Assembly (NCBI GenBank): GCA_045545475.1
Contig: JAZQAZ010000030.1
Coordinates: 32,001 to 96,000, forward strand
Length of the DNA: 64,000 nt
Direction of reading: 5' to 3'
DNA from: Clostridia bacterium
GTDB lineage: Bacteria > Bacillota > Clostridia > CAKSNL01 > HGM11501
This document shows positions 31,381 to 56,148 of this stretch, one piece after another. How positions within the stretch are numbered: position 1 is the first letter of the stretch; each line of letters opens with the position of its first letter. A program made the translations under genes and the position numbers. The notes under the pieces are model-generated. The model did no database searches, was not told where the DNA came from, and saw only the letters and a program-made list of their open reading frames with translations.

Positions 31381-32550
31381 ATGAAGACATTTATTAAAAA
31401 CGGAACCGTTTTCAAAGAGGGCGGCATTTCTGACGGCATACTCGTTATCGAGGACGGAAAAATTATCGATACGGATTACTTTGGTGAAATCCCCGAAAAC
31501 TCACGGGTTATCGATGCCAAAGGCAATTACGTAATGCCCGGCTTTGTCGAGATTCACGCCCACGGCGGTGGCGGTGCCGACTTTATGGATAAAACGGCTG
31601 ATGCCTTTGAAACGGTAGCGAAAACCCACAGAAAATGCGGCACCACAACGATTTTACCCACCACTGTTGCCGCAAGCTATGAATCTTTATTAAAGGTGTT
31701 TGAAACCTATCGCAAAGTTTCTGCTTCAAAGACCATAAATTTCGGTGGACTTCACTTAGAGGGTCCATTTATCTCCATGGAAATGAAGGGCGCACAAAAC
31801 CCCGCCTTTATAAGAAATCCCGAAAAGGCAGAGGTTGATGCTTTGATAGAAGCAGGCGGTGACATTATTAAAAAATGCACCGTCGCGCCGGAAATTCTGG
31901 GAATCGACTATCTTGCAAAAAAGTTTACCGATAACGGAATTTATCTTTCATCGGGCCATTCAAACGGCACATTTACCGATATTGAAAAGGGCTTTTCTCT
32001 TGGCATACGCCACATCACCCATATGTATTCAAATACACCGACGGTGAGAAAAATCAATCAGACGGTTTATGCAGGAATTGTTGAAGCGGCGTATTACCTG
32101 GATGATATGCGAATCGAATTTATCGGCGACGGCTGTCATTTCCCGAAGGAAGCACTTAAAATGGCGGTGAAGATAAAGGGAATTGACAAAATCAATTTAA
32201 CCTCGGATGCTATGAGGGCGGCAGGAACTAACGCTTCCGAAAGCTATCTTGGCGAATGTCTGCCCGAAAACCGTGTTATCATCGAAGACGGTGTTGCAAA
32301 GCTCCCCGACAGAAGCTTTTTTGCAGGAAGCATCGCAACCGGAGACCGAATGCTTCGCTGGGCGCATTTTGATGCGGGACTCTCACTTTCTGATGCTCTT
32401 CGCCTTTTAACCTTATCTCCTTCAAAGGCAGTAGGTATTGATAAGGAAAAAGGAAGCATAAAAAAGGGCAAGGATGCGGATATAATCATCTTAAATAAAG
32501 ACCTTTTTGTTGAAGAAACCTATATTGCAAGGGATTTTAAGGAGGCTTAA
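31381..32550 (+). CDS. nagA: N-acetylglucosamine-6-phosphate deacetylase
   Basis: PGFVEIHAHGGGG, LHLEGPF, VAPE, GHSN, THMY, DGCH and AGS. Confidence 0.88.
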   Translation: MKTFIKNGTVFKEGGISDGILVIEDGKIIDTDYFGEIPENSRVIDAKGNYVMPGFVEIHAHGGGGADFMDKTADAFETVAKTHRKCGTTTILPTTVAASYESLLKVFETYRKVSASKTINFGGLHLEGPFISMEMKGAQNPAFIRNPEKAEVDALIEAGGDIIKKCTVAPEILGIDYLAKKFTDNGIYLSSGHSNGTFTDIEKGFSLGIRHITHMYSNTPTVRKINQTVYAGIVEAAYYLDDMRIEFIGDGCHFPKEALKMAVKIKGIDKINLTSDAMRAAGTNASESYLGECLPENRVIIEDGVAKLPDRSFFAGSIATGDRMLRWAHFDAGLSLSDALRLLTLSPSKAVGIDKEKGSIKKGKDADIIILNKDLFVEETYIARDFKEA

Positions 32551-43726: not shown

Positions 43727-45280
43727 ATGAGTATATTAAACGCAGAAAACATAAGCCACAGCTTTGGCGGAAGGCAGATTTTGGAGGATGCCAGCTTCCG
43801 TCTGCTTAAGGGCGAACACATCGGACTAATCGGTGCCAACGGCGAAGGAAAGTCCACCTTTCTTAAAATAATAACAGGCGAACTTACCCCAGAAGAGGGA
43901 AAGGTTGAGTGGTGCCGTCACATAACCTACGGATATTTAGACCAGTATTCCACCCTGGAGAAGGGCAAAACCATTATGGACATTTTAAGGGGTGCCTTTT
44001 CCCACCTTTCCGACCTTGAAGCTGAAATGATTGCCATATATGACAAAATGGCGGACGTAGCAGACGATGAAATGGCAAATCTTATGGAGGAGGTCGGCAC
44101 AATTCAGGAAATCCTGGACTCCTCCGGCTATTACACCATTGACACAAAAATCGTCGAGTACGCCAACGGCCTCGGCTTGTCGGAAATAGGCCTCGACAAG
44201 GATGTAACGGAGCTTTCCGGCGGTCAGCGTGCAAAGGTTTTGCTTGCCAAGGTGCTTCTTGAAAACCCCATGATTTTAATTTTGGACGAGCCCACAAACT
44301 TCCTTGACGAAAACCATATCCATTGGCTTACGGACTTTTTGCAGAACTATGAAAACGCATTTATATTAGTGTCCCACGATATGCCCTTCCTGACCAAAGT
44401 TACAAACGTAATCTATCACCTTGAAAACACGGTTTTGACAAGATACAAAGGTACATACGATGACTTTTTAAGAATGTACGACTTGAAGAAGCAGCAGGTT
44501 GAGCAGGCATTTAAGAAACAGCAGAAGAAAATTGCCGACCTTGAGGACTTTGTTGCAAGAAACAAGGCACGAGCCGCAACCGCAACATTGGCTCGTTCAA
44601 GGCAGAGAGAGCTTGACAAGATGGAGAAAATTACCATCGCTCCCGAAAAGATACGCCCCACCTTCTCCTTTAAGTCAGACCGTACACCCGGCAAGGTGGT
44701 AATTTCCGCTAAAAACCTTGTCATAGGCTATGACTCTCCCCTTTCCAAAAAGATTGACATTGAGATTGAGCGAAACAAAAAAATCGCCATAAAAGGCGTT
44801 AACGGTCTGGGAAAATCCACACTTTTAAAAACATTGCTTAAGCTTATCCCTCCCATCGAGGGTGATATTCAGCACGACCAGTTTATAAACGTGGGCTATT
44901 TTGAGCAGGAGGAAATTGCCTCCGACAAAACTGCCCTTGCCGAATTCTGGGACACCTTCCCCTCCCTTACCAACGCCGAAGCGAGAGCCGCCCTTGCAAA
45001 GTGCGGTCTTACCACCGACCATATCACAAGTCAGATGAAGGTATTGTCGGGCGGTGAAAACGCCAAGGTACGCCTTTGTAAAATTATGCAGAGCCCTGCA
45101 AATATTTTAGTTTTGGACGAGCCGACAAACCATCTTGACATTATGGCAAAGGAAGAGCTTGCCAAGGCTATAAAGGAATTTAAGGGAACAGTTTTACTTG
45201 TGTGCCACGAAGCGGAATTTTACGAGGATATTGTGGACGAGGTATGGGACGTTTCCTCCTGGAGCACAAAGATAGTTTAA
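43727..45280 (+). CDS. ABC-F family ATP-binding protein
   Basis: Two NBDs (GANGEGKST, LSGGQ, LDEPTN; GVNGLGKST, LSGGE, LDEPTNHLD) and no TM segments. Confidence 0.93.
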   Translation: MSILNAENISHSFGGRQILEDASFRLLKGEHIGLIGANGEGKSTFLKIITGELTPEEGKVEWCRHITYGYLDQYSTLEKGKTIMDILRGAFSHLSDLEAEMIAIYDKMADVADDEMANLMEEVGTIQEILDSSGYYTIDTKIVEYANGLGLSEIGLDKDVTELSGGQRAKVLLAKVLLENPMILILDEPTNFLDENHIHWLTDFLQNYENAFILVSHDMPFLTKVTNVIYHLENTVLTRYKGTYDDFLRMYDLKKQQVEQAFKKQQKKIADLEDFVARNKARAATATLARSRQRELDKMEKITIAPEKIRPTFSFKSDRTPGKVVISAKNLVIGYDSPLSKKIDIEIERNKKIAIKGVNGLGKSTLLKTLLKLIPPIEGDIQHDQFINVGYFEQEEIASDKTALAEFWDTFPSLTNAEARAALAKCGLTTDHITSQMKVLSGGENAKVRLCKIMQSPANILVLDEPTNHLDIMAKEELAKAIKEFKGTVLLVCHEAEFYEDIVDEVWDVSSWSTKIV

Positions 45281-45286
45281 GAATAC

Positions 45287-45318
45287 TAGTAAAAGAGCAG
45301 TTGTATGCTCTTTTACTA
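45287..45318 (+). terminator. Intrinsic terminator after the ABC-F gene
   Basis: TAGTAAAAGAGCA-gttgta-TGCTCTTTTACTA. Confidence 0.7.
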
Positions 45319-45333
45319 TAAACAACATTTAAC

Positions 45334-45362
45334 TTGACAAGTTTAGATTTTTATGGTATAAT
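45334..45362 (+). promoter_or_regulatory. Perfect-consensus sigmaA promoter upstream of the cassette array
   Basis: TTGACA-17 bp-TATAAT with extended -10 TG. Confidence 0.85.
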
Positions 45363-45514
45363 TTATTATACGCAGGCGGGCTTTACCGTACTGCGGATTT
45401 TTGCCGCCATATTTTAGCCCTATAAGTTAACAAAGGATGTGATGCCTATGATTGTACTATGACCGCACAGGAAAATTAATAAAATCAAATTAATATAAAG
45501 GAGGACTAAACAAT

Positions 45515-46612
45515 ATGTTTAACAACAAATATTTTAACGATTATAATTCAATGGACGATGAGGAAAAAACCGCCATACGTTATGGTGCTGAAGGAAGAGA
45601 CCTAAGCGATGTTATACGCTCGAGTCATAAAAAAATCAGCGACCCCAATAAAGTTTTCGATGCGTGGGTTAAGGGTGAGGGCATGCGTAAAACGGGAGAA
45701 TCAAAAGCCTTTCTCGACGAAATTGAAAAGTCGGAAATGGATGAACTTGAAAAATCATTATCAAAGCGGGATAAAACTGATGCAAACGGAATTTCTGCCT
45801 CTCCTATCAAAGATATATGGGGAAATGATTTAGCAAATGACACCTATGAAAAGGCAGAAAATACTGAAGATAATGCTTCAATAGAAAAAATGCCTTTTAT
45901 AACCGATTTTGATAGCACCGCAAAAGCACAAGCCTTGCCTCATATAAACAATTTATTGCCAAAGGACAAGGACTATGATATAATGTATCTAAGCGATGAT
46001 GCGGATTCGGCAGGCACTACTTCTTCCGGTCAGACAAATCAAAATGCATCGGAATCCGAAAGTAGTACCACTTTCGTTACCTATGGGTATTCCGACGAAA
46101 ATGTTGTAGGCGGAATTCAATTAAGACTTAATGAACTCGGCTACACAGATGTTGACATCACAGGAACCTTTGACGCAAGTACCGAAGCTGCTATAAAGGA
46201 GTTTCAGGAAGAGCGAGAGCTTCCGGTAACAGGTGTTCTTGACGATGCGACCAAAGCCGAGATGGGCTTTTCCGACGATTATTCCGTTTCCAGAAAAGGT
46301 GAAAACGCAACACCCTGGCACGCGCCATATTCTCCGCCCTTTAATATGGAGGACTATAAGCGAGAACAGGAAAGGCTAAAGAGAGAAAAAGAAGAAGCCT
46401 TAAAAGCAAAAGAAGATGAGGAAAATCTGCCTTTTTATAAGAAGTTAATCCTACCTATCCTTTTGAGGGAAACATATGAGGGTACTGCCCCTACAGCATC
46501 AGATCTGACGGAAGAAAATAAATTGCCGGAAAATTCCAACGAAGGAGTTTTGCAAGACGGAAATGTTATCGACGGAGCCAACTATCCTTATCCTGTTGAC
46601 GGATATAATTAA
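45515..46612 (+). CDS. Acidic protein with a peptidoglycan-binding (PG_binding_1-like) domain and a variable C-terminal tip; candidate polymorphic effector
   Basis: V-x-x-IQLRLNELGY...ITGTFDASTEAAIKEFQ...LPVTGVLDDAT at about 46073-46264. The 3' end is repeated downstream. RBS AAAGGAGG; no evident signal peptide. Confidence 0.75.
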   Translation: MFNNKYFNDYNSMDDEEKTAIRYGAEGRDLSDVIRSSHKKISDPNKVFDAWVKGEGMRKTGESKAFLDEIEKSEMDELEKSLSKRDKTDANGISASPIKDIWGNDLANDTYEKAENTEDNASIEKMPFITDFDSTAKAQALPHINNLLPKDKDYDIMYLSDDADSAGTTSSGQTNQNASESESSTTFVTYGYSDENVVGGIQLRLNELGYTDVDITGTFDASTEAAIKEFQEERELPVTGVLDDATKAEMGFSDDYSVSRKGENATPWHAPYSPPFNMEDYKREQERLKREKEEALKAKEDEENLPFYKKLILPILLRETYEGTAPTASDLTEENKLPENSNEGVLQDGNVIDGANYPYPVDGYN

Positions 46613-46628
46613 TAAGGAGGAGTTATAA

Positions 46629-47573
46629 TTGAAAATGAAAAAGCTTGTTATTTGGAGATTTATACTGCCACTTATATTCGCCGCTATTGCAACTATTTTG
46701 GCGTACGGGATAGTCTGCTTTGACCAAAGATGGTCAAACGGCAAAAATGATATTTACAAGTTGTCGCTTTTCATAGCCATAGCCATAATTTCGGTTATAT
46801 ATTTTTTCGTGGGGAAAAAATATAATGATGTAAATGTAAAAAAGCTTTTTCTTATTTTTTCAATTTGGACTGCAGTAATATCTTCAGTTTCTTTCCTTAC
46901 TAAAAATTCTACGATACTTCTTTTAAGCGGAATACACTATTATTATTTCGGAGCCATTTTAGAAATATTCCCTGCGTCAACTCCCATTATCATTCTTATA
47001 TCGGGTTTTATTTCAGAAATGCTTGTTCTTACAACCGGCATCGTTTACGGAAGATTATCCAAGCCCGAGAAGAAATACACTTTCACATTCTATAAAATAT
47101 CTTCTCTGCTATTGTGGATTCTCTCTATGCTCTTTTTCTACTCAATAACTCTTATTTTCTTAAAAATCCCCTATACAGTACTTAAACAAAACATCGCACT
47201 TGAATCAGGACGTATAATTTCAGGCACTCTTTGTTGCCTTTGGTACTTTTTTGCCGGAATAAAAACCTCAAAGGGCAATTTATTGAAAACCCTTTCAGCC
47301 ATTTCTCTATGGAACGTACTTGCTGTAATATTAAGATTTGTAACCACCTCCTTTATCCCCCTTTATCTCAGCGGAGGCTATATATCCCTTTTGAGTGCAG
47401 TCTCTGTTTTTACCAACTCAAAAGCTATAATTTATTTATCAGCTTTTGCAGTAGAACTCGCCTTAATTTCATCAGGTGTACTTTTTGGACGGCATCTTGA
47501 TAAAAAGAAAGCACCGTCCTTCAAAAATGATGAAGAAAAATGGATGCTTACAAGAGAGCACAGGAAAGGCTAA
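46629..47573 (+). CDS. Multipass membrane protein, two-module member of the array family (candidate immunity or partner)
   Basis: About 8 hydrophobic segments; two copies of the YFFxG...W...SG...E-x6-G-x3-GR module. RBS AGGAGG. Confidence 0.75.
   Translation: MKMKKLVIWRFILPLIFAAIATILAYGIVCFDQRWSNGKNDIYKLSLFIAIAIISVIYFFVGKKYNDVNVKKLFLIFSIWTAVISSVSFLTKNSTILLLSGIHYYYFGAILEIFPASTPIIILISGFISEMLVLTTGIVYGRLSKPEKKYTFTFYKISSLLLWILSMLFFYSITLIFLKIPYTVLKQNIALESGRIISGTLCCLWYFFAGIKTSKGNLLKTLSAISLWNVLAVILRFVTTSFIPLYLSGGYISLLSAVSVFTNSKAIIYLSAFAVELALISSGVLFGRHLDKKKAPSFKNDEEKWMLTREHRKG
47122..47510 (+). repeat. 389-bp direct repeat, copy 1 (copy 2 at 50581-50969)
   Basis: Colinear, about 16 mismatches by manual count. 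Confidence 0.92.
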
Positions 47574-47797
47574 AGCGAGAAAAAGAAGAAGCCTTAAAAG
47601 CAAAAGAAGAGGAAGAAAATCTGCCCTTATATAAGAAGTTACTCCTCCCTTTTCTTTCGAGGATAATATACGAGGGTACTGCTCCCACAGCATCAGATCT
47701 GACGGAAGACAATAAGTTGCCCGAAAATCCCAACGAAGGAGTTTTGCAAGACGGCAATGTTATCGACGGAGCAAACTATCCTTATCCTGTTAACTGA
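47540..47797 (+). pseudogene. Orphan C-terminal cassette 1 (variant copy of 46346-46597)
   Basis: Colinear 252-bp homology to the 3' end of 45515..46612 with clustered substitutions. A TGA replaces the GGA codon near the end. Confidence 0.8.
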
Positions 47798-47828
47798 CAT
47801 AATCAATAATAAGGAGATGTAATCAAAA

Positions 47829-48719
47829 ATGAAAAAGCTTGTTATTATACGCCTTGCTTCATTTGTTGCCTGGTTTCTTGGAACAGAAATCACTGCAATC
47901 GCTTTACTATTATGCAGAATTAATCCGGATGACATAATGAATAATTGGTGGAATTTAAATTTTTGTTATGCATCCGGAATGATAGCATTATACCTTTTTT
48001 ATTTCTTTGCAGGAAAATTTTTTCACGATATCAGCATAAGAAAGCTAATTCCAATATTTTTCATTTGGACGCTGCTTTCCATTTTGTCTGATGCTTTTTT
48101 AGCAAAGTATCTTATTTTTTCAAGCGGTTCATTTATTTTGTTCTCAGCAGATGTCTTAACAATGGGCTTTACCGATAACCGCTATCTCGCATACCCGATA
48201 GGCTTTTTCATTGAAATTTTCGTCCTTGTTACGGGGATTTTGCTTGGCAGAATAACATCCGGAAAAATCTCCGGAGGAAACTTTGTCTATCCGGCAAAAT
48301 TCTTTGCTGTAATTATAGCCACTATGACGGCGCGTTTTGTCAGACACATAGTTGTTGCCGTGTCTGACAATCCGGATATTAATTATCTTAAAGATGCAGC
48401 ACTTGATTTAGGCTGGGTTATTTCGCTTCTCGCAGTTGCCGTATGGTATTTTTATATCGGATATAAATGCCATAATACAAACTTAAAAATTGTTATTCCG
48501 ATTTACTTTATATGGAATGCAATCGGCGTGGCATTATGGCGTATTTCAGGAAACTGGAATGCAGTTATGCTATGCGGAGGATACACAGGCTTTTTTAACG
48601 GAATAAGAGTTTGCACTCCCGATAGATTTCTTTGGCTTGTATGTATCGGAGCTTTTTTACTTGAAGCAACTTTCCTGACGGCAGGCGTGATTTTAAGGCG
48701 GTACAAAAGAAAAAATTAG
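47829..48719 (+). CDS. Multipass membrane protein, two-module member of the array family
   Basis: Starts MKKLVIIR; FYFFAGK...IFFIW...EIFVLVTGILLGR and WYFYIGYK...CGGY...EATFLTAGVILRR. Confidence 0.75.
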   Translation: MKKLVIIRLASFVAWFLGTEITAIALLLCRINPDDIMNNWWNLNFCYASGMIALYLFYFFAGKFFHDISIRKLIPIFFIWTLLSILSDAFLAKYLIFSSGSFILFSADVLTMGFTDNRYLAYPIGFFIEIFVLVTGILLGRITSGKISGGNFVYPAKFFAVIIATMTARFVRHIVVAVSDNPDINYLKDAALDLGWVISLLAVAVWYFYIGYKCHNTNLKIVIPIYFIWNAIGVALWRISGNWNAVMLCGGYTGFFNGIRVCTPDRFLWLVCIGAFLLEATFLTAGVILRRYKRKN

Positions 48720-48740
48720 TATATATGGCGTGGAAATTCT

Positions 48741-49181
48741 ATGTTAAAAATACTTTCTTTACATTTAGGACTCGGAATAATATCGTTAGCCGTAAATTAT
48801 CTTTTAGTACCAAATCCCACAAGATGGGTGCTTTGCGTCATATTCAGCATTTTATATTTTATTGCGGGAGTTTTCAGTACTAAAAAAACAGTCCTTGCAG
48901 CTGCACCGATTACATCCCTTCTTCCCTTTTTATCAAGATTAATACAGATTATTCTCGGCAGCACTATGTTCTCACATAAAATCATATCCGACCTTACCGT
49001 TATCCCCTACGGCGGAGCCTATGCTTTTACTTTAGCAACAGTTGACCTACTTTATACAGGTCACGCTTTTTGGGCGTGGTTCATCAGAATTTTGGGTTAT
49101 TTATCCCCCGGCATTTTAATTTTAGTCGGTTACTTGTTAAAAAAGCTTCTCGCAACAAAAAGTGAAACTTCTGCTATGTAA
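48741..49181 (+). CDS. Multipass membrane protein, divergent single-module member
   Basis: About 4 TM segments; LYFIAG, YGGAY and ILVGYLLKK resemble the module. Confidence 0.6.
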   Translation: MLKILSLHLGLGIISLAVNYLLVPNPTRWVLCVIFSILYFIAGVFSTKKTVLAAAPITSLLPFLSRLIQIILGSTMFSHKIISDLTVIPYGGAYAFTLATVDLLYTGHAFWAWFIRILGYLSPGILILVGYLLKKLLATKSETSAM

Positions 49182-49203
49182 AGAAAATCCAATAATACTC
49201 TTG

Positions 49204-49576
49204 GCTTCCGGTAACAGGTGTTCTTGACGATGCGACCAAAGCCGAGATGGGCTTTTCCGACGATTATTCCGTTTCCAGAAAAGGCGAAAACGCAACCCCG
49301 TGGCACGTTCCCGAATCACCGCCTTTTAACATGGAAGCATACAAGAGAAAACAAGAAGGACTAAAGCGCGAGCAGGAAGTAGCGAAAGCTGCAAAAGAAG
49401 AGGAAGAAAACTTTTCCCTTTGGGCATGGTTACTAAATTTACCCTTATCCGTATTATCACTTATACTTGGCGAAGATGCCGTCAGCGGTATGAACCCCGG
49501 AACAGAGGTGGCAGAAGATCCTTTACAAGAAGAGGATTTATGGAAAAACGGTACTATGAATGATTATAATAATTAG
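49204..49576 (+). pseudogene. Orphan C-terminal cassette 2 with an alternative tip
   Basis: 49204-49284 is identical to 46219-46299 and colinear homology runs to 49411, then an unrelated tip follows. In-frame stop just upstream (49193) and no RBS. Confidence 0.85.
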
Positions 49577-49600
49577 TATTAATTAAAAAGAGGGATAGAT

Positions 49601-50023
49601 GTGAAAAAGCTTATTATATGGAGATTACTGATACTTCCAATCGGTTTCGCAGTAGAATGTGCGGCAGCGACCTTTGCCGTATATATTTTAAAAATAACTT
49701 CAAAAACAGGGCTTATTGTAGGTGCTGCAGCAGGAATACTAGCCGCAGCTGTTTTATACTTTCTTGCAGGATTTAAAAATCACAAAGCAAGTATCCCGAA
49801 AATATCCTTGTGGTATTTTTTATGGACTGTTACAGTTCTTGTGTTTGCTTCATTTTTTAATTCTCCCATTTTAGGCCCAGTTGCAGGCGGATATATTTTA
49901 TTTTCTCAAATAAACTATTTTCTGCCGGCAGGTTCGGAAATTTTATCCAGCACTTTAGCTTTCGCATTGGAGATTTCCTTTTTATCTTTCGGGATATTTA
50001 CCGGCAGATATGCAGATAAATAA
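49601..50023 (+). CDS. Multipass membrane protein, single-module member of the array family
   Basis: Starts MKKLIIWR (GTG); LYFLAGFK...YFLW...AGGY...EISFLSFGIFTGR. Confidence 0.75.
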   Translation: MKKLIIWRLLILPIGFAVECAAATFAVYILKITSKTGLIVGAAAGILAAAVLYFLAGFKNHKASIPKISLWYFLWTVTVLVFASFFNSPILGPVAGGYILFSQINYFLPAGSEILSSTLAFALEISFLSFGIFTGRYADK

Positions 50024-50025
50024 CA

Positions 50026-50070
50026 ATAGATAATGCCAACTATCCTTATCCTGTAGATGGATATAACTAA
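50026..50070 (+). pseudogene. Orphan C-terminal remnant 3 (IDNANYPYPVDGYN-stop)
   Basis: Matches the last 14 codons of 45515..46612 (IDGANYPYPVDGYN) plus the downstream TAATAAGGAGGA. Confidence 0.8.
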
Positions 50071-50084
50071 TAAGGAGGATGTAA

Positions 50085-50981
50085 TTGGAGATGAAAAAAT
50101 TAGTATTTGCACGTTTTATAATCTATGTTGCATGGATCATCCCCACAATCCTTATGCTACTATTACTAACACTATTCGATCAGAAGTATCAGTTAGATAT
50201 GGAAGCTTTCTATTCTCTTACAGTTCGTCTGTCAATAGCCTTAGTTTCTGTATTATATTTTTTTATGGGGAAAAAGTATTATGATGTAAATCTCAAAAAG
50301 CTTTTACTTATTTTTTCTATATGGTCCATAATAATATCTTTGTCAGTGCTTCTTACCAGTCAACCCCTGCTCCTATTCTTAAGCGGTGCACTTTATTGTT
50401 ATACTAACTTAATTCCGGTGACATTTCCGATAACATCTCCTGCGCTGTGCCTTATACTTGGATTTGCTTTCGAGATGATTATCCTTATGAGCGGAATAAT
50501 ATACGGCAGACTTTCCAACAAATACAGCAATCGTCCATTTTTTACTTATTACAAAATATCTGCTTTGTTATTGTGGTTTATCTCTATGCTCTTTTTCTAC
50601 TCAATAACTCTTATTTTCTTAAAAATCCCCTATACAGTACTTAAACAAAACATCGCACTTGAATCAGGACGTATAATTTCAGGTGCTCTTTGTTGCCTTT
50701 GGTACTTTTTTGCCGGAATAAAAACCTCAAAGGGCAATTTATTGAAAACCCTTTCAGCCATTTCTCTATGGAACGTACTTGCTGTAATATTAAGATTTGT
50801 AAGCACCTCCTTTATCCCCCTTTATCTCAGCGGAGGCTATATATCCATTTTGAGTGCTGTATCAGTGTTTACCGACTCAAAGCCCATAATTTATCTATCA
50901 GCTTTTGCAGTAGAACTCGCCTTAATTTCATCAGGTGTACTTTTAAGGCGGCATCTTGATAAAAAGAAAAAAATAATTTAA
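50085..50981 (+). CDS. Multipass membrane protein, two-module member of the array family
   Basis: Starts MKKLVFAR. Second module nearly identical to that of 46629..47573; first module diverged. Confidence 0.75.
   Translation: MEMKKLVFARFIIYVAWIIPTILMLLLLTLFDQKYQLDMEAFYSLTVRLSIALVSVLYFFMGKKYYDVNLKKLLLIFSIWSIIISLSVLLTSQPLLLFLSGALYCYTNLIPVTFPITSPALCLILGFAFEMIILMSGIIYGRLSNKYSNRPFFTYYKISALLLWFISMLFFYSITLIFLKIPYTVLKQNIALESGRIISGALCCLWYFFAGIKTSKGNLLKTLSAISLWNVLAVILRFVSTSFIPLYLSGGYISILSAVSVFTDSKPIIYLSAFAVELALISSGVLLRRHLDKKKKII
50581..50969 (+). repeat. 389-bp direct repeat, copy 2
   Basis: Matches 47122-47510. Confidence 0.92.
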
Positions 50982-50992
50982 GGAGAATTATC

Positions 50993-53194
50993 ATGAAACA
51001 AAATGAAGTTTTTGCTTCCGCCCTGTGGATTGGAAGCAACGATGATAATACCGATGCTTTTTACATACTCCGCGGAAAATTTTCTGTTTCAGAGGTTAAA
51101 AAGGCGACTTTACGCGTTTTAGGACTTGGCTTTTTCCATTGCTACATAAACGGACACCGGGTGGGTGATGATTTGTTTTTACCCCTCACTACGGACTATG
51201 AGCCCCGAAAAAACTTTCCGTCAGGCGAAATTTTATCGGGGCACAGAATTTATGTTCCCGAATATGACATAACCGATATGCTATGTGACGGCGAAAACGT
51301 AATCGCCATACATTTTGGCGGAGGCTGGTATACCTTTAATCATCCAATAGAAAACTTTAAAGATTCCGATATGCGATTCGGTGCACCCAAGGCTATATGG
51401 CGCATTTTCGGGGACGATGAAAACGGAAGCTTTGAAGCAGTATCAAGCGAAGAAGACATTCTTCTTCCCGGCTTTATAAAAAATTATTTTTTTCCACGAA
51501 GGGAATATCAGGACTTTTCCTTAAGCTCGGAAGATGCCTTTTTGCCAAATTTTGACGATTCAGCTTTCCCGAAGGCGAAGGCCGTAACGCCGCCCGACAC
51601 CACTTATCATTTTACAAGCTGTCCCAAAGACAAGGTGTGTGAAATTTTGCACCCGGAAAAGATTGCCGAAAACGAAGAATATACCTTGTACGACTGCGGC
51701 AAGAACACAACCGGCTATCCCGTAATTGAAATTACCCATCCCGAAAAGCAGGCTGTAAAGTGCATTTTTTCCGAGGAATTGTCCGGCAGTGCACTTGACG
51801 AAGGCTTTTCCCACTGGCAGGAATTTACCGTTATTTCCGACGGCAAAAAGCGCCTTGTCCATCCCCTTTTCACCTGGTTTGGCTTCCGTTATTTCGCCAT
51901 TTACGGAAAGGCAGAATTAAAATGTGTGGAGGTTATTCACTCGGATGTTACCGTTACCGGCGAATTTGAGTCGGACAACGAAATGCTTAACAAAATAAAC
52001 GAGCTTTTTATAAACACACAGCTTACCAATATGCACGGCGGTATCCCTTCGGACTGCCCTCACTTGGAACGTCGTGGCTATACCGGAGACGGTCAGCTTT
52101 GCTGCCACGCCGCAATGACCTTGCTTTCCGCAAAAGACTTTTACAGAAAATGGATTTACGACATATTTGACTGTCAGGACACTTTGACGGGCCATGTTCA
52201 GTACACCGCACCATACACCCATTCGGGCGGAGGTCCCGGCGGCTGGGGTTGTGCTATAATTGAAGTTCCATACCGCTATTATCTCCATTATGGAGAAACC
52301 GATGTTCTCACAGAATGCTACCCCGGGGTAAAACGATATTTTGACTATCTTGAAAGCCACTCGGAAAACAATCTTGTAATAGCGGACAAGGAAGGCGAAT
52401 GGTGCTTAGGCGACTGGTGCACCCCCACCTCTGTCACACTTCCTGCCCCCTTTGTAAACAATTATTTTTACATAAAGAGCTTGTACCGTGCCATCGAAAT
52501 TGCAAAAATTATCGGAAGCGAAGCGGACATCCCCCTTTTCGAGGAAAGAATTGAGATACGCAAAAAGGCGATAAAAAATGCTTATTTCAACCCCTGGGAC
52601 GGAAATTTCCTGGGCGGAGTTCAGGGGGCAAACGCCTTTGCCCTTGATATAGGTCTGGGAGATCACAGAACTTATCCCAATCTCCTTTCCCGATATGAAA
52701 AAATGGGCGAATTTGACACGGGTATTTTCGGAACGGATATTTTGATAAGGCTTCTTTTCCAGCGTGGCAACGGAGACCTTGCCGTTAAAATGCTTACATC
52801 AGGCGGCGTTCACTCATTTTCCGAAATGATTAAAAGAGGGGCTACCACCATCTGGGAATACTGGCCCGAGTCGCTCCGTAACCGCTCCCACAACCATCCC
52901 ATGTTCGGTGCTGTTACGGCTTATCTTTACGATTATCTCTTAGGCATCCGCCAGAAAGAAGGCTCTGCAGGCTATGAAAGCCTTATAATCGCTCCAGTAT
53001 TGGCAGAAGGCGTAAACTCCCTTTCAGGAAAAAGAGTTCTTCCGAAGGGCGAGGTTTTTGTTTCCTACGAAAAAGCGGACGGTAAGATCTCATTTATAAT
53101 AACCATCCCCGAAAATCAGGAGGCAGAATTCATTTTAAGAGAAAGCAAAGTGTCCCTTTCAGCGGGCGAAAACAAAATTACACTTGATTTATAA
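50993..53194 (+). CDS. Alpha-L-rhamnosidase family protein (GH78)
   Basis: FTWFGFRY, IPSDCPHLERRGYTGDG, LGDW, GATTIWEYW and SHNHPMFG. Confidence 0.9.
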   Translation: MKQNEVFASALWIGSNDDNTDAFYILRGKFSVSEVKKATLRVLGLGFFHCYINGHRVGDDLFLPLTTDYEPRKNFPSGEILSGHRIYVPEYDITDMLCDGENVIAIHFGGGWYTFNHPIENFKDSDMRFGAPKAIWRIFGDDENGSFEAVSSEEDILLPGFIKNYFFPRREYQDFSLSSEDAFLPNFDDSAFPKAKAVTPPDTTYHFTSCPKDKVCEILHPEKIAENEEYTLYDCGKNTTGYPVIEITHPEKQAVKCIFSEELSGSALDEGFSHWQEFTVISDGKKRLVHPLFTWFGFRYFAIYGKAELKCVEVIHSDVTVTGEFESDNEMLNKINELFINTQLTNMHGGIPSDCPHLERRGYTGDGQLCCHAAMTLLSAKDFYRKWIYDIFDCQDTLTGHVQYTAPYTHSGGGPGGWGCAIIEVPYRYYLHYGETDVLTECYPGVKRYFDYLESHSENNLVIADKEGEWCLGDWCTPTSVTLPAPFVNNYFYIKSLYRAIEIAKIIGSEADIPLFEERIEIRKKAIKNAYFNPWDGNFLGGVQGANAFALDIGLGDHRTYPNLLSRYEKMGEFDTGIFGTDILIRLLFQRGNGDLAVKMLTSGGVHSFSEMIKRGATTIWEYWPESLRNRSHNHPMFGAVTAYLYDYLLGIRQKEGSAGYESLIIAPVLAEGVNSLSGKRVLPKGEVFVSYEKADGKISFIITIPENQEAEFILRESKVSLSAGENKITLDL

Positions 53195-53213
53195 AACTTT
53201 ACGAGGTACAGCT

Positions 53214-53939
53214 ATGTCAACTACACTTAAAACAAGAATTGAGAGCTATGACGTGACACCTTCCGGTCTTATGCGCCAGTCCACCATCTTCCGCCTTTGT
53301 CAGAGAGCTGCGGGAGACGACCTTGATAAGGTGGGCGGAAGCTTTGAAACCTTGGTTTCCCACGGCCTTACCTTTGTAATTACCAAAATGGAAATTACAT
53401 ATTTTGCCGATATTAAAACCTATGATGAAATTGAAATTATAACATACCCGAGAGGTGTTAAAGGCCCCTCCTTTATCCGTGACTACGACATACTTAAAAA
53501 TGGCGAGAGGGTTGCCTATGCTTCCTCCCACTGGGTTTTAATCGATATAGAAAAAAGAAAGTTCTGCCGCCCCTCGTCCCTTTCTTCAGTGTGTGAAATT
53601 ATCCCGGATATGGATAATTTATATGAAATGCCGATTAGAAAAATCCACCCCGACTTAAGCGAAATGGAAAAAGCGGATGAGCGAAAGGTATACTATTCAA
53701 ATATTGACAGAAACAACCATATGAATAATACCTTTTATCCCGACATTTTATTTGACTATCTCCCCGACAGCTATTTAGATACCCTGAAAGGCAAAACCGT
53801 AACCGTTCAGTACAGCTCGGAAATACTCTGCGGCGAGCACTTTACTGTTTATAAAAAGGAAGAAAACGGTGCTTTTACTCTCTCCGCAAGATGCGAAAAA
53901 GAGGCTAAGGACATTTTCTCAGCAATGATAACAATGTAA
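53214..53939 (+). CDS. Acyl-ACP thioesterase
   Basis: Double hotdog fold pattern; YSNIDRNNHMNN. ATG at 53214. Confidence 0.85.
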   Translation: MSTTLKTRIESYDVTPSGLMRQSTIFRLCQRAAGDDLDKVGGSFETLVSHGLTFVITKMEITYFADIKTYDEIEIITYPRGVKGPSFIRDYDILKNGERVAYASSHWVLIDIEKRKFCRPSSLSSVCEIIPDMDNLYEMPIRKIHPDLSEMEKADERKVYYSNIDRNNHMNNTFYPDILFDYLPDSYLDTLKGKTVTVQYSSEILCGEHFTVYKKEENGAFTLSARCEKEAKDIFSAMITM

Positions 53940-53958: not shown

Positions 53959-55008
53959 ATGAGTCTGGCAAAAATGCAGAAATTTGAATCAAGATCAATT
54001 TCTCCCGAAAACTTTACCGGTGAAAAGGGAAAAGGCGGAATGGCTTTGACGGGAACAGGCGAAAACGCCGCCCGTGATCTTGGTCAGGGCTGGAAGGTTT
54101 CCCCATATATAGTGATAAAGCCCGGCGAAACCTTTACCCTTGGTGCAATGGACGGTCCCGGCATAATAAAGCACATATGGATAACAGACAGCTGTCCCAA
54201 AAACAGAATGCTTGTTATAAGAATGTACTGGGACGGAAGCGATACACCCTCTGTCGAAGCGCCTCTGGGTGACTTTTTCGCATCTGCCGAATATCAGCGC
54301 TATGCTCCGCTTGCATCAATTCCCGTTTGCGTAAATCCCAAAAAGGGGCTTAACTGCTACTGGGATATGCCCTTTTATAAAAACTGCCGTATAACCCTTG
54401 AAAATCTTCACTCGGAAGATGTTTCTGTATATTATCAGATTGACTATGTTGTAGGCGACATCCCAGAGGACTACGGCTATTTCCACGCCCAGTTCAGACG
54501 CGTAAATCCCCTTCCCTACAAGGAATGCTACACAATCCTTGACAATGTATCAGGCAACGGTCACTATGTAGGTACATATATGTTCTGGGGCGTAAACAAC
54601 ACAGGCTGGTGGGGCGAAGGCGAAATCAAGTTTTATCTTGACGGCGACAAGGATTTCCCCACAATCTGCGGCACCGGCACAGAGGACTATTTCTGCGGCT
54701 CCTGGAACTTTGATATAGGCGGAAAATATCAGGAATTCTGCACCCCCTATTCAGGTATGCCCAAGGTTATAAGACCGGACGGGCTTTACAGCTCGCAGCA
54801 GCGTTTTTCACTTTACAGATGGCACATAAACGATCCTGTCTACTTTAAGAAGGATATAAAGGTTACCATTCAGGCTTTGGGCTGGAGAAGCAACAAGCGC
54901 TACCTTCCCCTTCAGGATGACATTTCATCCGTTGCCTTCTGGTATCAGGACAGCATTTGCAAAACCTTCCCGCCCTTCCCTTCAGTAGATGAGCTTGAAA
55001 TTATATAA
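53959..55008 (+). CDS. DUF2961 / glycoside hydrolase family 172 protein
   Basis: SRSISPENFTGEKGKGG, GPGIIKHIWIT, WWGEGE, GTGTEDYF and DDISSVAFWYQ. Confidence 0.9.
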   Translation: MSLAKMQKFESRSISPENFTGEKGKGGMALTGTGENAARDLGQGWKVSPYIVIKPGETFTLGAMDGPGIIKHIWITDSCPKNRMLVIRMYWDGSDTPSVEAPLGDFFASAEYQRYAPLASIPVCVNPKKGLNCYWDMPFYKNCRITLENLHSEDVSVYYQIDYVVGDIPEDYGYFHAQFRRVNPLPYKECYTILDNVSGNGHYVGTYMFWGVNNTGWWGEGEIKFYLDGDKDFPTICGTGTEDYFCGSWNFDIGGKYQEFCTPYSGMPKVIRPDGLYSSQQRFSLYRWHINDPVYFKKDIKVTIQALGWRSNKRYLPLQDDISSVAFWYQDSICKTFPPFPSVDELEII

Positions 55009-55035
55009 AAAAGTTGAGGCAATGCCTCAACTTTT
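55007..55035 (+). terminator. Intrinsic terminator (symmetric, potentially bidirectional)
   Basis: AAAAAGTTGAGGC-aat-GCCTCAACTTTTT. Confidence 0.85.
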
Positions 55036-55294
55036 TATTTTTTACCTCATCCGTAAAAACTGTTCGATATCCTTTAGAACCCTATTCATAAATAGGCTCA
55101 ATCACGCGGTTTTAAGCAGAGTTTGACCTTTTCATTCTATACCAAACGCGTGATAGTTATAAAATTCCTATACACAAATAACAAGTTTCGACAAAATTAT
55201 TGTCATTTTACTCTTTCAGTGCTATAATAGAGATAATCATCAGTTATTCGCGAAATTTACAAACGCTGTTTTGAAAATATAAAATAGGAGGTAT

Positions 55295-55390
55295 ATGATG
55301 ATGAAGAAAACATTTAAGACTTTTTTGTATATTTTGTTGGCAATCGTAGCCTTTATCATAATTAGAGCTATGATAATCACAATCTTTTGA
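55295..55390 (+). CDS. Small single-TM peptide (29-31 aa)
   Basis: AGGAGG RBS, then MMMKKTFKTFLYILLAIVAFIIIRAMIITIF-stop; below the ORF-track cutoff. Confidence 0.55.
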   Translation: MMMKKTFKTFLYILLAIVAFIIIRAMIITIF

Positions 55391-55407
55391 TAAGAAGGAG
55401 AATCGTT

Positions 55408-56148
55408 ATGGAAACAAAAGTAGAAGAAAAAACAGAAGAAAAGGTTGTTGAACACAAGGACACATCCAAAGGAGGAAGCATTTCAATCAAAATCAAATAT
55501 AAAACTCTTCTTATACTCTCTATACCTTTGATATTTTTTATTATCGGATTTGTATCGGGATTTAAGATAAATAATCGCTCAATCATCGATCCTGACTCGG
55601 CAATTGTTGACAATGAGATAATCAATATCACTCCAGACATCGATGTCACATATTTAAATACTGCTTTAAAAGAAGCAAGCGAGTTAACCACAGCAAAACT
55701 AAAAATCAATGGTTTAGTGGATTTCAAAGACACGGGTATTATCATCTTAAACAAATCTGATTTCACAATGAAATATACTGCAGATATAAGTGCTGGTATA
55801 GATATGTCAAAGGTCGAAATTAAAAATGACGATATAGACCATGAAAATAAGAAAATAATTGTAGAGATTCCAAAAGCCATTGTATTCAAACCAAATGTTT
55901 ATCATGGCGATAAATACATAAAATTCTATGACGAAGAATTTGCTTTATTTAATGTCAATGAGAAAGAAGACCTTTCACGAGCATTAGCAATGGCAGAGAA
56001 AGATGCTGAAAATGAAGCCGTAGAAAATGGATTACTTGAATTAGCAGACAAGCAATCAGAAACATTAATAAAAGGTATTCTTTCAGATGCGGTAAGTCAA
56101 TTCGGATATACCATAGAAATCAAATATATTGACAAGGAGAAAAAGTGA
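55408..56148 (+). CDS. DUF4230 domain membrane-anchored protein
   Basis: One TM segment, SELTT, AGIDMSKV, I-x-VEIPKA and GLLE-x-A-x-x-x-SE-x-LI. ATG at 55408. Confidence 0.75.
   Translation: METKVEEKTEEKVVEHKDTSKGGSISIKIKYKTLLILSIPLIFFIIGFVSGFKINNRSIIDPDSAIVDNEIINITPDIDVTYLNTALKEASELTTAKLKINGLVDFKDTGIIILNKSDFTMKYTADISAGIDMSKVEIKNDDIDHENKKIIVEIPKAIVFKPNVYHGDKYIKFYDEEFALFNVNEKEDLSRALAMAEKDAENEAVENGLLELADKQSETLIKGILSDAVSQFGYTIEIKYIDKEKK

Follow-up and report, generated by a model that had tools for sequence, protein, structure and literature searches.

A strain-variable array of exchangeable tips and membrane proteins in a gut Clostridia genome as a candidate polymorphic effector/immunity family

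Polymorphic toxin systems, as set out by Zhang et al. (2012, PMC3482391), combine a conserved N-terminal part with variable C-terminal modules, orphan cassettes and a trafficking signature. In their account of the CdiA and Rhs systems (CdiA-CT/CdiI and Rhs-CT/RhsI, where CT is the C-terminal region), homologues share one junction motif after which the C-termini diverge, the immunity gene lies directly 3′, and displaced orphan pairs with 5′ homology arms are exchanged between strains. The same source notes the peptidoglycan-binding domain PGB1 and LysM as adhesion modules in polymorphic toxin polypeptides, and describes PrsW, an eight-transmembrane (8-TM) protein with genetic links to toxin modules, for which it was suggested as a conduit. 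[quoted passage not shown] In the Ids system of Proteus mirabilis, a transferred protein and a membrane partner form the heteromeric IdsD/IdsE complex, whose variable subdomains set allele-restricted binding (PMC4471559). Here, we describe a 5.6 kb array on the plus strand of a 64,000-nucleotide stretch of DNA (the window; positions 32,001 to 96,000 of contig JAZQAZ010000030.1, assembly GCA_045545475.1) from a Clostridia bacterium. Between a gene for an ABC-F-like protein (43727–45280) and a gene for a 733-residue protein (50993–53194), the array runs in the order hairpin, promoter, gene A, M1, O1, M2, M3, O2, M4, remnant, M5. Gene A encodes a protein with a peptidoglycan-binding (PG) domain and a short C-terminal tip, O1 and O2 are orphan 3′ copies of gene A, and M1 to M5 encode membrane proteins. 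The array is built of tip-plus-partner cassettes, its units are exchanged among strains, and tips are linked to their partner genes.

Comparison with these systems places the array near them and outside each of them. EsxX and TspA would be the closest functional precedents, judged by analogy: the array has a conserved N-domain, a short C-terminal end that appears non-enzymatic and polytopic membrane partners of putatively equivalent roles, and it contains strings of partner paralogues and orphan partner genes. In contrast to T7SSb toxins, gene A has no LXG domain and the genome has neither a WXG100 match nor a T7SS core gene above its cut-off; A carries a PG_binding_1 domain and an E/R/K-rich helix before the tip, the M proteins match no Pfam family, and entire tip-plus-partner cassettes are kept as orphans. 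The CdiA/Rhs arrangement of junction motif, adjacent 3′ gene, displaced pairs, homology arms and strain exchange is reproduced (PMC3482391), but no two-partner secretion (TPS) domain with filamentous haemagglutinin (FHA) repeats, no RHS/YD repeats with PAAR and no other known carrier accompanies it (the first two pairs are absent from A by Pfam at E <= 1), its host is a Clostridia metagenome-assembled genome (MAG), most of its C-terminal ends are non-enzymatic, mutually alignable tips of ~60 residues, and the partners belong to one membrane family. The pairing of variable subdomains with a membrane partner recalls IdsD/IdsE; however, Ids export depends on type VI secretion (T6SS; PMC3735182), and no sequence relation to the array was detected. 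PrsW-dependent toxins differ in that PrsW is fused to the toxin, while M is a separate gene. Of the features listed by Zhang et al., the array has the conserved N-terminal part with variable C-terminal modules and the orphan cassettes, and lacks in A the trafficking signature (signal peptide, LXG/WXG, TPS, PAAR, PrsW or MuF). Thus, the polymorphic toxin/immunity logic with orphan cassettes is already known; new are the N-domain, the M family and the way in which a wall-binding domain, a helix and a mini-tip are combined. A literature search, not exhaustive and with supplements outside it, found no description of the A and M families, and the polymorphic-toxin papers that name PG_binding_1 concern, by their titles, Tc (toxin complex) and T6SS toxins.

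Tip–partner cassettes and their exchange between strains

The cassettes are delimited by internal repeats. The 3′ end of gene A recurs at O1 (46343–46642 and 47537–47836, 87% identity over 300 nucleotides) and at O2 (46219–46425 and 49204–49410, 84% over 207 nucleotides), and beyond 49410 the sequence turns into a different tip. The 45-nucleotide block of tail plus ribosome-binding site occurs three times in the array, a 25-nucleotide block is common to the starts of M1, M2 and M4, and the C-terminal halves of M1 and M5 are 96% identical over 300 nucleotides, with a synonymous divergence of 0.17 as against 1.84 for their N-terminal halves. Repeats of 207–300 nucleotides at 84–96% identity are far beyond chance. 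At the protein level, homologues are conserved up to the junction motif SPPFN(M/L)E.Y and diverge sharply after it (alignments A2 and A6). All tips can nevertheless be aligned as a charged helix, a run of ~20 hypervariable residues, either hydrophobic or rich in Gly/Ala/Ser, an invariant Gly and a tail of 32–52 residues with a net charge of −5 to −10; the differences between tip A and tip A′ of O1 concentrate in the hydrophobic stretch. Hydropathy of TM grade is found in four of the 14 scored tips, namely three copies of tip B (Kyte–Doolittle mean 1.81–1.84, the window copy at 1.81) and P0008 (1.65). Pfam scans recognised no toxin-like domain in the tips.

Tips and partners are linked. Behind tip B lies an M4-type gene in 4/4 genomes, and behind tip A an M1-type gene in 2/2. 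Similarity of tips and similarity of partners are correlated (Mantel rho 0.37, p 0.003), although the 14 pairs include orthologues from related genomes and the test therefore overstates their independence. The nonsynonymous to synonymous rate ratio (dN/dS) is 0.10–0.22 for the tips, 0.66 for M1, 0.30–0.53 for M4 and 0.26 for M5, compared with 0.03 for the ABC-F gene at the flank. No value reaches 1 and all exceed that of the ABC-F gene, which indicates that the genes of the locus are coding, under purifying selection and fast-evolving. A predicted complex of tip A (A6) with M1 (A5) scored 0.01 against a mark of 0.32 and, with controls absent, counts neither for nor against the pairing. The initial annotation, made from the DNA letters without database searches, had a membrane gene starting MKKL(V/I) behind every tip; this needs correction for M3, which starts MLKIL and has no tip before it, and for M4, which starts with GTG.

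Related genomes, which are MAGs from faecal and colon samples, carry other arrangements. In the sister species G002, the flanks are 94–97% identical at the nucleotide level and the same chromosomal site holds a different array: gene A is N-truncated and bears tip A, a gene of M1 type (93%) comes next, and then an orphan of tip B, its tail shifted, and an M4-type gene (81%). In G003, the main gene itself (the contig starts at residue 100) bears tip B, with 83% amino-acid identity to O2, and genes of M4 type (89%) and M5 type (94%) come next. In G004, the end of one M2-type gene and a fragment of tip B precede genes of M4 type and M5/M1 type. The arrays of G003 and G004, too, occupy the same site. 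Contigs from four public runs were also placed on the locus, array parts without coverage being left unused. A single contig of 7,982 bp in run X3 passes from the end of the ABC-F gene through 103 other bases into the PG domain (46088–46345) and jumps from 46345 to 47540, into the O1 tip; beyond O1, it continues through M2 and M3 to 49136 and, after 23 bases, reaches the right flank at 50970. Run X1 has the same joint between 49136 and 50970, and also has the end of the PG domain joined to 47540. In run X4, M5 is joined to M3 (50969 to 48740), the end of M2 is joined to the flank (48678 to 50929), and a further joint leads from 46368 to 50029, its middle not being known. The joints in X3 and X1 show that O1-M2-M3, an orphan cassette in the window, serves other strains as the primary cassette. 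Breakpoints coincide with the junction motif or with borders of homology.

Since relatives have other unit orders and independent assemblies share clean joints, the array is neither invariant nor an assembly artefact. Two expectations of the polymorphic-cassette reading are thereby borne out: that tips and cassette order vary among relatives, as seen in G002, G003, G004 and runs X1, X3 and X4, and that orphan C-terminal cassettes with a downstream partner are exchanged by recombination, to which the repeats, the joints and the G002–G004 arrays all testify. The artefact that the initial annotation named as a possible refutation was checked in the independent assemblies, where the same units and clean joints recur. 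The reading of the array as an artefact, or as decaying junk without function, is accordingly scarcely credible: the genome is a MAG in 50 contigs, related loci often lie at contig ends, the tip B orphan of G002 has its shifted tail and one gene in G009 is interrupted, but the shared joints, the purifying selection at dN/dS 0.10–0.66, the intact open reading frames (ORFs) and the ribosome-binding sites of M1, M2, M4 and M5 speak against it.

The N-domain, its paralogues and the membrane protein family

The only recognised domain of protein A is the peptidoglycan-binding one. Pfam at E <= 1 gives PG_binding_1 (E 7.9e-16, 58.4 bits against a cut-off of 23) and otherwise only PG_binding families and one chance-level match. 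The fold of this domain matches the endolysin 5nm7_A (Z 9.8, root-mean-square deviation 2.5, 67 residues aligned), 6tci_A (SleB N-domain, Z 9.1) and the SleC binding domain, the top Z scores being 9.8, 9.6 and 9.1. A shares this fold with endolysins and SleB but has no catalytic domain, and PHROG endolysin families match it at residues ~167–254 only; a phage endolysin/holin cassette was looked for and not found, as A lacks a catalytic lysin domain, the M proteins match no PHROG, and the adjoining genes are chromosomal and offer no prophage context. An AlphaFold2 (AF2) model of A, built from 16 sequences and with a mean predicted local distance difference test score (pLDDT) of 53.7, predicts a helical N-domain with helices between residues 4 and 84 (pLDDT 77–88 over 11–80), a disordered linker over 108–193 leading to the PG domain, a long E/R/K-rich helix over 278–303, a short helix over 308–319 and a disordered acidic tail. 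The long helix corresponds to the charged helix noted from the sequence. Close relatives of A number 12 among 5.8 billion proteins, and all members found of the A and M families come from one genus of uncultured gut Clostridia MAGs.

The N-domain (~115–118 residues) is conserved, with 38 invariant columns in alignment A4, and belongs to no described family that our searches could reach. It has no match in Pfam, NCBIfam or the Protein Data Bank (PDB) and no usable match in the ESM Atlas; a word-based protein search with residues 1–118 returned the query alone, and its alignment found no relatives in JGI metagenome contigs or IMG/VR viral contigs. Fold searches gave Z <= 5 only, such as a MarR-like protein at Z 4.7, which is noise. 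An impression of a helix-turn-helix like that of sigma-70 region 4 was dropped, being unsupported by the fold searches. With an N-domain profile, 3/14 genomes of the order match strongly (G000, G007 and G009); at class level, 7/399 scored genomes match at E <= 0.01, comprising the same three and four at 18–21 bits that we regard as chance.

The paralogues show what the N-domain carries. The sister species G007 and G009 have 4–5 copies each, at separate chromosomal sites and often at contig ends, and their C-termini are PG domain plus tip, tip only or ParB_N. In the ParB_N paralogue (contig G007:C14), a hydrophobic stretch precedes the domain, which scores E 4.4e-7 and 30.3 bits against a cut-off of 26.3 and carries DGHHR, a motif strongly conserved in polymorphic-toxin ParB domains (Zhang et al. 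2012, PMC3482391). A supposed likeness of the hydrophobic middle of this protein to the pre-toxin TG domain was discarded, as Pfam at E <= 10 found none. The order on G007:C14 is N-ParB gene, metallophosphoesterase, 8-TM gene. Between the same two flanking genes of ~550 codons, which resemble aminoacyl-tRNA synthetases by eye only, G009 has an N-PG-tip gene and an 8-TM gene, and G007 has N-ParB, the phosphoesterase and M; the 8-TM proteins at this shared position are 43% identical. On contig G009:C22, the order is N-tip, M, a phosphoesterase and a second M (54%). The two phosphoesterases (L038 on G007:C14, 9090–9761, minus strand; L037 on G009:C22, 8230–8907, minus strand) have 224–226 residues and are 75% identical, and the G007 protein matches phrog_1649 (E 3.5e-34) and the PADLOC candidate family PDC-S10 (E 3.8e-8). 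That of G009:C22 occurs without a ParB gene. The phosphoesterase gene beside the ParB paralogue possibly has a role in immunity or is related to defence. At L034 (G009:C13, 6227–7290), an N-domain/PG/tip gene is split into two overlapping ORFs of 99 and 259 residues with one TAG inside, which is either a pseudogene or a sequencing error. Because alternative C-terminal modules are found on one N-domain at equivalent loci, the N-domain behaves like a polymorphic-toxin carrier. The initial annotation had recognised no carrier domain; residues 1–115 in fact form a conserved, family-specific domain joined to different C-termini in its paralogues, ParB_N with DGHHR among them.

The M proteins form a family of their own. 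M1, M2 and M5 each contain a 4-TM module in duplicate and M4 is one such module, as shown by six matches of M4 to both halves of M1, M2 and M5 (E 2.8e-6 to 1.3e-3). M3 has four TM helices and module-like motif positions, with a marginal family match (hhalign E 0.006, probability 6%). Residues invariant across 17 members of the family include YFF, where TM2 ends on the cytoplasmic side, F..E within TM4, one Glu in TM8, and G..R at the ends of TM4 and TM8; there is no invariant His. The AF2 model of M2 (pLDDT 86.7, predicted template modelling score 0.84) predicts eight long helices. If the topology is N-in, as the positive-inside pattern implies, variability is greater in the outer than in the cytoplasmic halves of the TM helices (mean column entropy 1.84 versus 1.10), the outer half being higher in 7/8 helices and tied in TM4.

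For the M proteins, no family in Pfam, NCBIfam, PHROGs or PADLOC scored above its cut-off, though distant relatives may exist, and PADLOC matched no window protein at all. For the M fold, Foldseek against PDB and BFVD found nothing at E <= 0.001, PDB gave nothing by sequence, a wide VIA-align search reached Z 6.1 at best, which is the noise level for helical proteins, and M2 retrieved only unnamed clusters from the ESM Atlas (0.84–0.87). None of the five proteins has a Pfam match to PrsW/CPBP at E <= 1. A match of M2 to Glt_symporter (E 1.5e-4, 21 bits, under the cut-off of 26) was taken as chance. The family and fold searches thus gave no match above cut-off to known membrane immunity, transporter or holin families, or to ABC permeases, a possibility that had been raised beforehand. 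The M family is also small, its profile finding eight proteins among 1.84 billion representatives and its alignment a single locus in metagenomes, L070, with an M5-type gene at the contig start.

Layout of the locus and its surroundings

The host genome of 2.74 Mb in 50 contigs is 95% complete, and a single copy of the locus was found in it. The locus has a G+C content of 37.3%, compared with 40.8% genome-wide. Consensus promoter, full-length gene, five membrane genes, two orphan 3′ copies and remnant are all present as initially described, and their positions are collected in Table 1.

Table 1. Window coordinates of the array elements, with the basis of each assignment
Feature	Position	Strand	Basis or remark
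Hairpin, terminator-like, 13 pairs	45287–45318		3′ of the upstream ABC-F-like gene; left border of locus
Promoter, sigma-70-type with extended −10	45334–45362	+	TTGACA-17-TATAAT plus TG, 12/12; consensus match only
Gene A, full-length effector candidate, 365 residues	45515–46612	+	ORF; AF2 model
N-domain, residues 1–118, conserved helical	45515–45868	+	Alignment A4; no family match
PG_binding_1 domain, residues 200–250	46112–46264	+	Pfam and fold match
Exchangeable tip A	46346–46609	+	E/R/K helix 278–303, short hydrophobic stretch ~305–320, acidic tail
M1, 8-TM (two 4-TM modules), tip A partner	46635–47573	+	ORF; its counterpart behind tip A of G002 is 93% identical
Orphan O1, 3′ copy with tip A′	47537–47797 (ORF from 47540)	+	87% nucleotide identity to A; no Shine–Dalgarno-like sequence
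M2, 8-TM, travels with tip A′	47829–48719	+	ORF; contiguous with O1 and M3 in other strains
M3, 146 residues, 4-TM, possibly a divergent single module	48741–49181	+	Weak family match
Orphan O2: last third of PG domain, junction, tip B	49204–49576 (ORF 49247–49576)	+	Nucleotide homology; no Shine–Dalgarno-like sequence
M4, single 4-TM module, 140 residues, GTG start, tip B partner	49601–50023	+	Follows tip B in 4/4 genomes
Remnant: last 14–16 codons of tip A plus ribosome-binding site of next gene	50020–50070	+	45 nucleotides, 93% to 46577–46621
M5, 8-TM mosaic	50091–50981	+	C-half 96% nucleotide identity to M1, N-half diverged

A Shine–Dalgarno-like sequence precedes A, M1, M2, M4 and M5 and is absent at O1 and O2, which makes separate translation of the orphans seem unlikely. 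The start of O1 is an internal Met codon that is conserved within the junction motif (FNM-E/D, 47537–47542), and O2 has an in-frame ATG at 49247. The 5′ untranslated region of gene A has no match in Rfam, and its fold is ordinary (z −0.2). Contigs of an RNA library (run X19) cover parts of A, M3 and O2/M4, which is no proof of transcription since DNA can occur in such libraries.

Both borders show changes between strains. Homology to G002 ends at 45286, by the left-border hairpin. Further upstream, at L031 (G002:C14, 3609–5039), a 1.43-kb insertion relative to the window lies between the serine-hydrolase-like and ABC-F genes and contains ORFs for an 87-residue Cys-rich protein and a 168-residue protein with an N-terminal hydrophobic stretch. 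On the right, the gene for the 733-residue protein starts 11 nucleotides past the M5 stop and is preceded by a ribosome-binding site of its own; with no terminator-like site between the two, this gene is possibly co-transcribed with the array. At L070 (1–1670), the M5-type gene adjoins a homologue of the window gene at 53184–53939 and the 733-residue gene is missing between them, so the right border of the locus varies too. At 54800–55800 of the window, the G+C content falls to 0.31–0.35, versus ~0.47 in the adjoining genes.

Readings of the array and their implications

A toxin/immunity role is what we infer from the architecture, and it is not itself a result. An indirect sign of toxicity comes from a single paralogue, the one with ParB_N and DGHHR. 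That the array represents a new family of polymorphic effectors with immunity partners, whose tips are non-enzymatic and directed at the membrane, has, in our judgement, an even chance of being right. On this reading, protein A would be released by a route not yet recognised, with the N-domain as its family-specific carrier, and its PG_binding_1 domain would dock it in a cell wall. The E/R/K helix could then serve as a rigid spacer that points the tip towards the membrane, and the tip of ~60 residues would act from outside on the cytoplasmic membrane, either on the bilayer or on a membrane target. The 4-TM or 8-TM protein encoded behind the tip would be its cognate immunity protein, intercepting it through the variable outward-facing half. 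New tip-plus-membrane cassettes would recombine in at the junction of the PG domain and SPPFN(M/L)E.Y and push older ones downstream, where the displaced tips would become silent orphans and their membrane genes would persist as extra immunity.

Several observations weigh against this effector/immunity reading. Tips A and A′ are 81% identical, and their partners M1 and M2 just 29%; no dN/dS above 1 occurs in the locus. The short hydrophobic segment that the initial annotation noted in gene A is not of TM grade in tip A, where the best 19-residue mean is 0.45; the one in tip B is. G002 and the strains of X1 and X3 lack the N-domain and promoter region. Protein A has no signal peptide, no hydrophobic N-terminus and no known trafficking domain, and no known secretion system was found: the 95%-complete genome gives 0 matches to WXG100 and 0 to LXG, and for the T7SS core, YukC reaches 18.2 bits at best, below its cut-off, and EssC 107.6 bits versus 778.4. 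The invariant intramembrane Glu and the conserved cytoplasmic-face motifs of M would also fit a transporter or an enzyme. Lastly, an M gene is present in the ParB locus although no short tip is, and the phosphoesterase takes the immunity position there, so M may serve the N-domain protein in another way.

Other roles for the same genes were therefore considered. Protein A could be a wall-to-membrane tether in a variable envelope complex, its tip docked on the cell's own M and the silent cassettes varying the surface under pressure from phages or host antibodies. Pilin and Vls cassette systems are the model for surface variation from silent cassettes. The orphans, having no ribosome-binding sites, resemble donor cassettes that are silent, M turns its variable parts outward (if the topology is N-in), the predicted succession of PG domain, helix and tip has the geometry of a tether, no toxin-like domain is recognised in the tip, and an M gene lies near every N-domain gene, the ParB one included. 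We nevertheless hold this to be unlikely: A lacks a signal for export, a ParB domain of the toxin type, with DGHHR, is found on one paralogue, the extra tip-less M3 and M5 fit an accumulation of immunity genes better, and strains that retain M while losing the N-domain and promoter would be odd for a structural complex. The presence of M beside every N-domain gene, even where the ParB fusion has another gene in the immunity position, can also be read as a sign that M is an export or processing conduit for the N-domain protein instead of its immunity protein, similar to PrsW but encoded separately and compatible with a toxic A. The intramembrane Glu of TM4 and TM8, the cytoplasmic-face motifs, the failure to find another export system and the conduit idea for the 8-TM PrsW (PMC3482391) all agree with this. 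It is distinctly unlikely all the same, since M has neither a PrsW/CPBP match nor an invariant His, and five divergent M proteins, M genes that travel with orphan tips and M genes kept without the N-domain are hard to explain for an exporter. There is only a slim chance that M combines both functions, conduit for its N-domain protein and outward-facing immunity, in a two-gene antagonism system with its own export route.

The remaining two readings assign the tip a different target or effect. In non-lethal kin or self-recognition of the IdsD/IdsE type, a transferred tip would bind the recipient's M in an allele-restricted manner and alter its behaviour. The pairing of a variable hydrophobic subdomain with a variable membrane partner and the non-enzymatic nature of the tips suit such a role, as does the example of the IdsD/IdsE complex with its allele-restricted binding (PMC4471559). 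We consider it very unlikely, as neither T6SS-like nor other transfer machinery came to light, the ParB toxin-type paralogue points to antagonism, and a stock of orphan cassettes with extra partners is typical of toxin/immunity loci. Alternatively, the tip might depolarise the membrane of its own producer upon loss of M or interference by a phage, as an intracellular toxin–antitoxin or abortive-infection system. An A without an export signal, a variable locus of lower G+C content and the PDC-S10 match of the phosphoesterase beside the ParB paralogue would be expected there, but no window protein matches PADLOC, a peptidoglycan-binding domain has no obvious cytoplasmic use, and outward variability of M with orphan CT-type cassettes fits a conflict between cells better. 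An intracellular role is thus highly improbable.

The importance of the locus is limited by its range, one genus of uncultured gut MAGs. Known toolkits of interbacterial antagonism cover gut Clostridia poorly. The array has the full genetic logic of polymorphic toxin/immunity, yet it is built on two families that match nothing known and comes with no recognisable secretion system. Tips that prove membrane-active would rank with the smallest toxin modules that can be exchanged. If M were both conduit and immunity protein, the wall-docking domain and single-helix spacer would set the exchangeable hydrophobic tip on the membrane of a neighbour, and the system would represent a new principle of secretion and delivery in monoderm gut bacteria. 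Given membrane-active tips, M would be a new immunity-protein fold, and the N-domain would point to an export route of monoderm anaerobes that is still to be discovered.

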